Below are positions 18,701 to 21,700 of a stretch of DNA of 36,978 nt, one piece after another. Position numbers: made by a program. The DNA is from a virus. Its lineage: Duplodnaviria; Heunggongvirae; Uroviricota; Caudoviricetes. The first letter of the stretch is position 1. The number at the start of each line of letters is the position of its first letter. The stretch is from the IMG/VR virus record IMGVR_UViG_2565956727_000003, positions 1 through 36,978 of that record, one strand, 5' to 3'.

Positions 18701-21700
18701 GACAACCCGGTCGCCCCGAAGGGGTCGATGGGTGACTCACTGACCGGGCTGATTTTGTTCGCCGCTTTGGCCTCCTCGAGGATGTAGCGATAATCCACCT
18801 CCGCACCATCGGTAACGGTCAGAACGCCCATTTCCACCCATTTCTGAAAGCGTTCGGCTGTCCGTCGATCTTCATTTTTCTCGACGCTGTACACCGTGTC
18901 ATACGGTACCCAGAAACGCGGGGCCACACTGTAATAATGCGTTTTACCGTCAATCTCGCGGGTATAAAGTCGCGCCATGCTGTTCATATCCAGCTTACGC
19001 GCCAGGTCAAAGGCCAGAATGCACGGCTGCCCCTCGAACTGCTCAAGGGTCAGTGATTTATCCTCGCAGCTCTGCCAGCTCACCAGGTTGAAATACGCCG
19101 AACGCGCCGACACCCAGATATTGAGGTGTTTTGTTTTAAAGACGTTTGCCAGACGGGCGTTATTTTTCGCACGCTGCTGCTGACTTAACAAAAATTCGCG
19201 ATAAACCGACACGCCAATATTTGGATTGGCTTTTTCCAGCACCTGCGGGTCGGTCCAGTCGTCACCTTCATCAACGGTATAGATGATCCCGAACAGTTCA
19301 TCGTTAGGCACCGAGCCGTTGAGCATCTCGATGACTTCCCGCCGCTTGTCGTAGCACGGCCCCTCAATGTTGTACCCGGCGGTGGTGATGGCCCACATCA
19401 GTGGCTGACGTCGCGCCCCCATCCCGGTAAGCATCGTGGTGTAAAGCGCATCGGTGGCGTGCTCGTGATATTCATCCACCACAGCACAGTGGGGTGATGA
19501 ACCATCACCGGGGTTACCGATCAGCGGTTCAAACCGCGCGCCATCCTCCGGACGGTTCATGTTTGAGGCGTTAACCTCAATCCCGAACGCTTCCGTCAGC
19601 ATGGGTGTGCGTTTACACATCAGTCGCGCCGGGCGAAAGACTTCCCACGCCTGTTTCTCCGTCGTGGCACCGGAATACACTTCCGCGCCAAACTCGTTAT
19701 CACAGGCAAAACAATACAGGGCGACACCGGCAGAGATTGCCGATTTGCCGTTCTTACGGGGGATTTCGGTATACACCTCCCTGAAGCGGCGCAGCCGGGA
19801 GCCTTTATTGACCCAGCCAAACGCGCAGCAGATCACAAAGAGCTGCCACGGCTCCAGCGTGATGGGCATCCTCTTGAATGCCCACTCACCCTTGGTGTGC
19901 GGCAACAGCTGAATAAATTTGGCGGCCCGTTCAGCCAGGTCCTTGTCGAAGCGGTAACGAAACGACTTACTTTTTTCCGCCATCAGGTCATCAAGATGGC
20001 GCTGGCAGGCCTGAATCACAAACTGGCAGGCCACAATCTTTCCGCGCACGACATCACGGGCATACTGATTGGCTGCATTTACATTGGGGTAAGATTTCCG
20101 GCTCATGATTCGATAATTTTCAGAAACGGGTTAGTGGCTTTCTTCTGCCCCGCCAGGCCAATCAGACGCTGGCGGCTGCTGGGGTCGAGTCCGAGCATTG
20201 CCCCCGTGCTGCTCATCTCGGACTCCTGTTCTTTCTTGGCGGTCAGCTCCGGATTTTTGACCATACCGCCCATTGCACCGGTGATGGTGTTGCCCTGGCT
20301 GGCAATATTTTTCACGGCACGTCGCCAGAACTCATAGGCCACACACCACCGCTCAAGCACCGCGAGGTCAGTCACGCACAGCAGGCCCTGACCGCAGAGT
20401 TCTTTGGTTGTCAGTTGCCACATGATCGTGGCGAGAGGGAGATCTTCTTCAGCGAACCACTCCGGTGGCTCAACACCTTTGATGGGCGTAAAAACAGGTT
20501 CATCTTTGTTCAGGGCTCGCTTGCCGGGGTTTCCGGCCAGCGCCTTGCGCGCCGTTGGCTTGGGGCGACGCCCGGAACGCCCCGCCGTTCCAGCCATATG
20601 CGGCACTCCTGGTTAAATTTCATTTTTCGCGGGTATAAAAAAACGATGGGGCGGGCAGTCCGGAAGACGTCAGGTCACAGAGATTTGACCCGCCCCTCCC
20701 CTCAGACAGTTGAGAGTTATTATCACTTAAGCCGTTCACGGGCCGTCTTCGCCTTATGGCACGGCCAGCACAGACTCTGCAGATTGCAGTCAGCATCAGT
20801 GCCGCCATGCGCTTTAGGGATAATGTGGTCAACGGTTTTCGCCTCACGCACCACACCGGCACGCAGGCACAACTGGCACAGGCCTTTGTCACGCTTCAGC
20901 ACACGCGCGCGGATAACGTCCCACTTCGAACCATAACCGCGCTGGTGTCGGGACTGTCCAGGTTTGTACTGCTTCCAGCCTTCGCTTTTGTGGCTTTCGC
21001 AGTAGCCTGACGGGTCTGTGGTTGTAGAGCGGCAGCCGCGAACACGGCAGGCTTTTGGGGTTCGTGAGGGCATTGCATAATACTCTTGGTTGGTTCACGT
21101 GCGATATGTGGCATCCTTTTCAGAATCGAAGCGTACTCCACTACGGTTTTGCCATAAAAACCTCAGGATTTTTTTGTTAGACAAATCGATAGTAAACGTT
21201 CAAATTTACAAGATATTAGCAACAAAATAGCCTCTACAAGGAATCAATATGTTTGATTTTACTCATTTTGAAGAGTTGACTTTAGCATCCCATCAACCCG
21301 ATAGAATAATGACTATAGTTCGGTCCCAAGATGACATTGGTATCTATCTCCGCACTCACCTTTTGATTGAACAAATCTTGGAAGCTTGGATTATCTGTGC
21401 CTCTGGTAACAGGGATTTCTTCAGCGGTTTTGGCGAAAATATCAACATGGATTTTGCCATTAAAGCTCAGCTTGCGATGAACTATGGGATGAGCTCAGAG
21501 CTAAACAAATTTATTCGAAGGTTCAACAACTTCAGAAACAAACGTTCACATCAAATTAACAACTCTGACATCACTAACAGTGAGATTGACTCCTTAACAA
21601 GTCTAATGGAGCACGGTTACCCTGATAGCTTGACCCCCATTAGAGATTTTAAGCTTGGGGTTTACGGAGCAGAAACTAGGGTTGTAAGTTTCACGGGATC

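Follow-up and report, generated by a model that had tools for sequence, protein, structure and literature searches.

The DNA examined here is the virus record IMGVR_UViG_2565956727_000003 of IMG/VR (Duplodnaviria; Heunggongvirae; Uroviricota; Caudoviricetes), a stretch of 36,978 nucleotides that we refer to as the window. Its packaging module is encoded entirely on the minus strand, in the order HNH endonuclease, small terminase (TerS), large terminase (TerL) and portal, and an earlier note on this DNA had placed a candidate cohesive-end site (cos) in the gap between the HNH and TerS genes. Our analysis leads us to consider it very probable that this gap holds the cos of a temperate phage of the SfV/SfI/phiP27 type, integrated in an E. 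coli-like chromosome and read on the minus strand. The site as such is already known, as it is described in the literature and in GenBank annotation. It lies between an HNH gene and a TerS gene of the P27 family, as assigned with the Pfam models HNH and Terminase_4 and with TIGR01558.

The evidence that carries this assignment comes from relatives with mapped or annotated ends. For Shigella phage SfI, direct run-off sequencing of the virion termini revealed that 10 nt of the prophage sequence, 5'-TGCCCGCCCC-3', are absent, from which the authors concluded that packaging is of the cos type, as in SfV (PMC3636060); according to the description of SfIV, the phages SfI, SfII, SfIV and SfV all share the same cos (PMC3851460). 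The SfI 10-mer is found unchanged in the window as the reverse complement of positions 20648-20657, and its surroundings are preserved as well. The window matches SfV at every base between the HNH stop codon and the TerS start, and from -55 to the TerS start it differs from SfI by a single base just 3' of the 10-mer (coordinates are given relative to the cut, with +1 at window position 20647). A megablast search of phage records shows the HNH-TerS-TerL stretch to be 95-98% identical to Escherichia phages SKA5 and vB_EcoM-720R4 and to the Shigella phages SfV, SfI, SfII and SfIV, and the order HNH-cos-TerS-TerL is common to the four Shigella phages and the window.

More distant phages place the end at the same position. 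The phiP27 record (AJ298298) carries a misc_feature 'cos-site' at 21806..21815, which spans 10 nt, reads CGCCCGCCCC and falls at the same aligned position. Architecture and spacing are those of the window, with a GGGGAGGGGCGGGTCAAATC block, then GGAC^CGCCCGCCCC^ and then TTTTTACACCCGCGAAA (here and below a caret marks a cut or overhang boundary); phiP27 differs in the first overhang base, which is C and not T, and in the sequence beyond CCGCGAAA, which diverges, leaving 76% identity over 136 nt. The window TerS passes the NCBIfam 'P27 family' model TIGR01558 with 75.3 bits (cutoff 45.6), a model that was scanned on the window TerS only. The linear record of Edwardsiella phage EPP-1, which was corrected with PhageTerm (PMC11043334), ends in ...GTAC TGCCCGCCTC and restarts at the equivalent of +1. 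The pattern YGCCCGCCCC preceded by GGAC occurs in the window a single time, on the minus strand at 20661..20648 (GGAC TGCCCGCCCC).

The comparison with HK97, suggested earlier as a check, points the same way. HK97 ends are 10-nt 3' overhangs (PMC9410871, PMC11331095). Its record ends in ...TGAC CGCCGCCAAA, and the last 10 nt align with the cohesive end of the window at offset 0, that is, on the boundary mapped in SfI. When the upstream sequences are anchored at the ends and compared without gaps, 31 of 60 positions are identical at offset 0, the next best offset gives 25, and none of 20000 shuffles reaches the score, which identifies the cut position as homologous to the HK97 cos cleavage site. 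HK97 shares GAC^CGCC at the overhang boundary, TCAAATCT begins at -41 in both sites (in HK97 as G9-ATCAAATCT), an ACCCG motif with an A/T-tract follows downstream, and the HK97 TerS gene (gp1) starts at +50, as compared to +51 here. The enzymes correspond too: the window TerL matches the HK97 TerL structure 6Z6D (phmmer E=5.5e-25, residues 112-556), and the HNH protein adjoining cos resembles HK97 gp74 (BLASTP E=3e-10). The two sites differ in the downstream block, whose sequence and order are not the same, in the distance of the HNH gene, which ends 319 bp before cos in HK97 and about 65 bp before it here, and in the inverted repeat discussed below, which HK97 lacks. Among HK97 relatives in IMG/VR, near-invariance sets in at the G-run and whatever precedes it varies, although with TerS proteins that are 91-100% identical these relatives are too alike to test subsites.

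The run-off ends of SfI, the phiP27 annotation, the PhageTerm ends of EPP-1 and the HK97 ends thus uphold the placement of cos in the HNH-TerS gap of an HK97-type packaging module. They also refine it: the cohesive end is the 10-mer at 20648-20657, consisting of the TerS-proximal arm of the inverted repeat plus 2 nt, and it lies outside the 33-bp core between the arms.

This cos probably works like that of HK97. It is also tripartite like the lambda cos, in which an upstream element, a nicking site and a downstream binding region for the small terminase precede the small terminase gene (PMC7617512), but it is presumably unrelated to it. Lambda produces 12-nt 5' overhangs by means of gpA alone and without an HNH protein, whereas TerL here belongs to the TerL_ATPase and TerL_nuclease families and matches the HK97 enzyme, and the cohesive end of the relatives is 10 nt long, with a polarity that is probably 3'.

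Conserved blocks around the cohesive end

In order to see which parts of the region are maintained, we scanned one genome per species for relatives and obtained 43 loci with TerS identities from 98% to 49%, in hosts that include Shigella, Edwardsiella, Enterobacter, Citrobacter, Serratia, Photorhabdus, Xenorhabdus, Morganella, Gilliamella and even Cupriavidus. After removal of two truncated loci, the other 41 were aligned together with the window, SfI and ST64B, anchored on CCGCGAAA; 43 of the sequences are full-length and 40 of these are distinct. One locus (L009) lies on a 5.6-kb contig (JAEWTL010000102.1) from a metagenome bin labelled 'Bacillota bacterium', and its TerS and cos region are 98% identical to this enterobacterial prophage; the contig is probably mis-binned or a contaminant.

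The 40 distinct relatives align without gaps and, judged by information content, resolve into three conserved blocks at fixed spacing and a variable spacer. The elements of the site in the window are as follows.

20702..20679 (-55..-32), minus strand: upstream block, a G-rich run followed by TCAAATCTCT (consensus TCAAATCYCT); mean 1.35 bits per column, AAATC and CT near-invariant
20662..20678 (-31..-15), no strand assigned: variable spacer of constant length, containing most of the 'core' proposed earlier; mean 0.59 bits per column, the least conserved part
20648..20661, minus strand: equivalent of the nicking site cosN, GGAC and then the 10-nt cohesive end TGCCCGCCCC (20657..20648; plus strand GGGGCGGGCA), including the TerS-proximal arm 20648-20655
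20657/20658 on the plus strand (GGGCA^GTCC) and between 20648 and 20647 on the minus strand (CCCC^ATCG): predicted nicks
20637..20643 (+5..+11), minus strand: T7 tract, which forms an A-tract in the duplex; all 40 relatives have T at +7..+9, and 38/40 have it at +10 and +11
20613..20636 (+12..+35), minus strand: downstream block, ATACCCGCGAAAAATGAAATTTAA; 1.71 bits per column, the most conserved stretch of the region

In this alignment the G-run with TCAAATCYCT upstream and TTTTTATACCCGCGAAAAATGAAATTTAA downstream keep their distance throughout. Within the GGAC and 10-mer segment (-14..-1), all 40 sequences have A(-12), C(-11), G(-9) and C(-8) and 39 have C(-7), so that the overhang boundary is conserved as GGAC^YGCC, and no sequence other than AC^YG is invariant at either of the overhang's edges. 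Conservation is highest in the block +7..+35, TTTTTATACCCGCGAAAAATGAAATTTAA. While CCGCGAAA is present in 40/40 by construction, as the alignment anchor, most of the columns flanking it are kept in 35-40 of the 40 sequences and the lowest in 33/40, despite TerS identities down to 49%. By analogy with the HK97 site at +15..+29, the downstream block at +12..+35 is the likely candidate for the TerS recognition site, an equivalent of cosB, and the T7 tract is probably part of the region that terminase recognizes and bends. For the upstream block at -55..-32 we can offer a speculation, namely that it is a candidate docking site for TerL and HNH or a termination subsite resembling cosQ.

A proposed packaging mechanism

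By analogy with HK97, packaging could proceed as follows. After rolling-circle replication, terminase would recognize cos on the concatemer, with TerS predicted to bind the block at +12..+35 (20636..20613) together with the adjacent T-tract. This is the position of the HK97 TerS site, for which a minimal site at +15..+29 and nonamer binding through a G:C pair plus an A-tract have been described (PMC11331095); in the window, binding to 20613-20643 is predicted to depend on CCGCGAAAAA. TerL and HNH would then introduce two staggered nicks flanking TGCCCGCCCC (20657..20648) to give 10-nt 3' overhangs, and packaging would run into the TerS and TerL genes and stop at the next cos. The 3' polarity follows from the manner in which run-off reads behave: they stop at the 5' end of the template and leave the 10-mer uncovered, which suggests recessed 5' ends and thus 3' overhangs.

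The HNH protein would be expected to nick the plus strand at GGGCA^GTCC (20657/20658), because the invariant AC^YG boundary matches the specificity of other HNH nickases whose genes adjoin cos. Enzymes of this kind from phages of Bacillus, Geobacillus and Lactobacillus cut CG^GT (equivalent to AC^CG) or close variants of it, and for a chimeric nickase with the HNH domain of phage gamma, off-target nicking has been recorded at CA^GT (PMC3592412). TerL, in turn, would nick the other strand at CCCC^ATCG, at a fixed distance; the sequence at this position varies among the relatives, suggesting that TerL makes a measured cut. In HK97, gp74 stimulates cos cleavage (PMC9410871, PMC11331095), and it has been suggested that TerL and gp74 each cut one strand (PMC11331095). 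The G-run with its TCAAATCT block may serve as the docking or termination site for TerL and HNH, since its conservation tracks the TerL/HNH pair and not TerS: its spacing is identical in phages of the P27/SfV type and in HK97, the TerS proteins of which are unrelated in sequence.

A number of points speak against the cos assignment or against individual parts of it. The ends have been mapped in relatives, and this prophage is known here from its sequence alone. The 3' polarity is deduced from the SfI run-off gap, in which the reads do not overlap, and from HK97. The window TerS shows no similarity to HK97 gp1 in the searches made (phmmer against the PDB finds no match for the window TerS, gp1 has no Pfam family, and BLASTP gives E=6.4), so that carrying over the position of the HK97 TerS site is an analogy based solely on geometry and conservation. 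A description of HK97 gp74 as non-specific lowers the confidence with which a specific nick can be attributed to HNH. Finally, the GenBank records of SfV and SfIV are linearised at the equivalent of 20664/20665, inside the variable spacer and 7 nt upstream of the 10-mer.

With regard to deposited records in general, those of SfV, SfIV and VIT_AJPSC (U82619, KC814930, OR799564) are all opened between GACGTCT and TCCGGAC, 7 nt upstream of the end mapped in SfI, the SfII record begins directly after the HNH stop codon and that of ST64B just ahead of the TerS Shine-Dalgarno sequence. The deposited 'ends' are therefore inconsistent within this group of phages.

The correspondence with HK97 raises the question of a common grammar for 3' cos sites cut with the assistance of an HNH protein, in which AC^YG at the 5' boundary of the overhang is the HNH nick site, in line with the CG^GT specificity measured for such nickases of Gram-positive phages, TerL nicks at a measured distance irrespective of sequence, and a G-run (with TCAAATCT) about 40 nt upstream is the signal for TerL/HNH docking or termination. 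We put this forward tentatively and regard it as possible but rather doubtful. Other HNH phages give a mixed picture of the AC^CG boundary: the record of GVE2 is linearised elsewhere than at cos, in Lrm1 the record positions 3-6 read CGGT, and the boundary of the 9-nt overhang of phi3626 is GT^CG and not AC^CG. If true, such a grammar would settle which enzyme cuts which strand in HK97.

A further observation, on the G-run, concerns Clostridium phage phi3626, in which an HNH gene adjoins the annotated 9-nt 3' cohesive end and a GGGGAGGGGTAGGG run ends 38 nt before the right end of the genome. In the window and in HK97 the G-block, which this run resembles, ends 41 nt before the cut; the similarity may reflect a shared cos subsite or a coincidence.

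Other readings of the gap

The alternative that survives best is that the site is an intact-looking but unused relic, either because the prophage is cryptic or because packaging takes another route, leaving the site idle in this genome. Of 5426 complete E. coli genomes, 1124 carry homologous DNA, as a rule in one copy, with the best match in a prophage of E. coli LD91-1 (99.7% over the 301-bp HNH-TerS stretch), and many such prophages are defective. The cos region of the window is nevertheless identical to that of the viable phage SfV, and the open reading frames for HNH, TerS, TerL, portal, protease and capsid are all full-length, which makes this reading unlikely. It concerns the activity of the site in this host and not the identity of the element.

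A second alternative places the function in the transcript. The minus-strand RNA could form a hairpin followed by AUCG-U7, an intrinsic terminator or attenuator that would separate the lysis/HNH genes from the head genes and let pass only polymerase modified by Q. In support of this, the stem does form in the minimum-free-energy fold calculated with ViennaRNA (-26.9 kcal/mol) and is followed by U7, a gene for a Q antiterminator lies upstream at 24865-25617, and Xenorhabdus relatives carry a canonical-looking hairpin with U7 at the same place (z-scores -4.1 and -3.5, both significant). The fold of the window, however, is no better than that of shuffled sequences (z=-1.35; 19 of 200 shuffles fold as well). 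A rho-independent terminator has a G+C-rich stem, a loop of 3-8 nt and an adjacent U-tract, whereas the loop here measures 33 nt and the U-tract begins 4 nt after the stem; a terminator scan of the window found none, and an Rfam search of the region returned no match. Moreover, the T-tract is kept even where the stem is missing, including in HK97, where it is part of the TerS site. We therefore hold a terminator to be very unlikely, and return to the T-tract as a probable part of the terminase recognition region.

The remaining alternative starts from the inverted repeat. The perfect 8-bp G/C repeat seen earlier was recovered by a repeat finder, with arms GGGGCGGG at 20648-20655 and CCCGCCCC at 20689-20696 (8 nt, 100% complementary) and a spacer of 33 nt where about 34 had been claimed. 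When the gap was shuffled 5000 times with its dinucleotides preserved, a perfect inverted repeat of 8 bp or longer with a loop of 3-60 nt turned up in 4.9% of the shuffles. Such 8-mer repeats number 84 over the entire window, or about one in every 440 bp, and this one alone is all G/C. The repeat is real and mildly unusual (P about 0.05), and on its own it is statistically not compelling. The HNH-proximal arm sits within the separately conserved G-rich block.

That the repeat is itself the functional element, a two-fold symmetric site or a cruciform for a dimeric terminase or HNH protein with cleavage in the core between the arms, is the least probable of the three and already largely refuted: the repeat is perfect and the only such one in the window made entirely of G/C, the phages SfV, SfI, ST64B and phiP27 carry it in perfect form too, and the SfV and SfIV records are linearised within the spacer, but the mapped or annotated ends of SfI, phiP27, EPP-1 and HK97 fall at the arm and not in the core, the spacer is the least conserved part, no more than 6 of the 40 distinct relatives retain all eight pairs in register, and HK97 has no such structure (fold z=+2.0). 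Neither measure of covariation across the 40 relatives, in-register pair counts or own-versus-cross complementarity, gave a signal; the longest complementarity between G-block and cos core averages 5.67 nt within a sequence and 5.45 nt between mismatched sequences. The repeat is best read as a by-product, which arises because the overhang is C-rich and a G-rich block happens to lie 33 bp away, and not as a conserved feature.

Two smaller candidates were rejected. A tRNA-like origin of GGGTCAAATC finds no counterpart in the window, in which ARAGORN detects no tRNA and the sequence has no complementary 3' stem, and an IHF site in TCAAATCT, compared by eye, has 2-3 mismatches to WATCAANNNNTTR, conserved positions among them. 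Literature searches on the 10-mers returned unrelated papers only.

The Xenorhabdus hairpins are worth describing in their own right. In X. innexi (L036) and X. szentirmaii (L037) two strong hairpins form in the cos region (z=-3.5 and -4.1), some 75-150 nt ahead of TerS (locus position 1501). The first is built from the G-block and the spacer, with UCAAAUC as its loop; in the second, the cos core ACCGCC lies in the loop and U7 follows directly, in the manner of an intrinsic terminator. The stems differ between the species (CCAAGG/CCTTGG versus CAGGGG/CCCCUUGG), and both hairpins are absent from the window and from HK97.

Gene neighbourhood and significance

The genes of the packaging module that surround the site are listed below.

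21073..20723, minus strand: HNH endonuclease gene, 116 aa with Cys-rich motifs at the N-terminus, the final gene ahead of cos (Pfam HNH, 5.3e-15)
20597..20103, minus strand: small terminase TerS, P27 family, with its ATG at +51 from the cut (Pfam Terminase_4, 4e-21)
20106..18373, minus strand: large terminase TerL, HK97 type (Pfam TerL_ATPase and TerL_nuclease)
18255..16999, minus strand: portal (Pfam Phage_portal)

The best match of the HNH protein among solved structures is 5H0M, an HNH endonuclease (1.6e-12), and 65 nt separate the end of its gene from the overhang. The length of the gap depends on the start codon of TerS. A mechanical call of the open reading frame begins at a GTG at 20606, and with this start the gap has the 116 bp (20607-20722) reported in the earlier note. 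That GTG, however, overlaps the Shine-Dalgarno sequence AGGAG at 20606-20610, while SfV, RefSeq and E. coli LD91-1 all have the ATG at 20597 as the annotated start. We therefore take the ATG as the start, which makes the gap 125 bp long.

Apart from the cos region, the window differs from SfV by an additional cassette of two genes at 21249-22436 (plus strand), opposite in orientation to the late operon and inserted between Rz/Rz1 and HNH, which are adjacent in SfV. It encodes a 182-aa protein with no family match and a 186-aa ClpP-like serine protease (Pfam CLP_protease, 2e-12). A PADLOC search of the cassette gave no matches; its position and orientation would fit a moron, possibly a defence or exclusion cassette. 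Further upstream, a 261-aa open reading frame at 23877-24662 (minus strand) is situated between the gene for the Q antiterminator and that for the holin. It has no Pfam, NCBIfam or PADLOC match, and the annotation of E. coli LD91-1 lists it as hypothetical. The interval between Q and holin is the classic cargo slot of lambdoid phages, where the stx genes sit in Stx phages.

Placing the cos fixes the genome ends for a type of prophage that occurs in about a fifth of complete E. coli genomes, and hence allows these genomes to be linearised and annotated correctly; once the site is placed, cos-dependent mobilisation also becomes recognizable. The comparative by-products are modest, consisting of three conserved subsites whose spacing is fixed and of an invariant AC^YG at the overhang boundary that matches the specificity of HNH nickases, and they provide testable predictions on how TerL and HNH share the cutting in HK97-like packaging.

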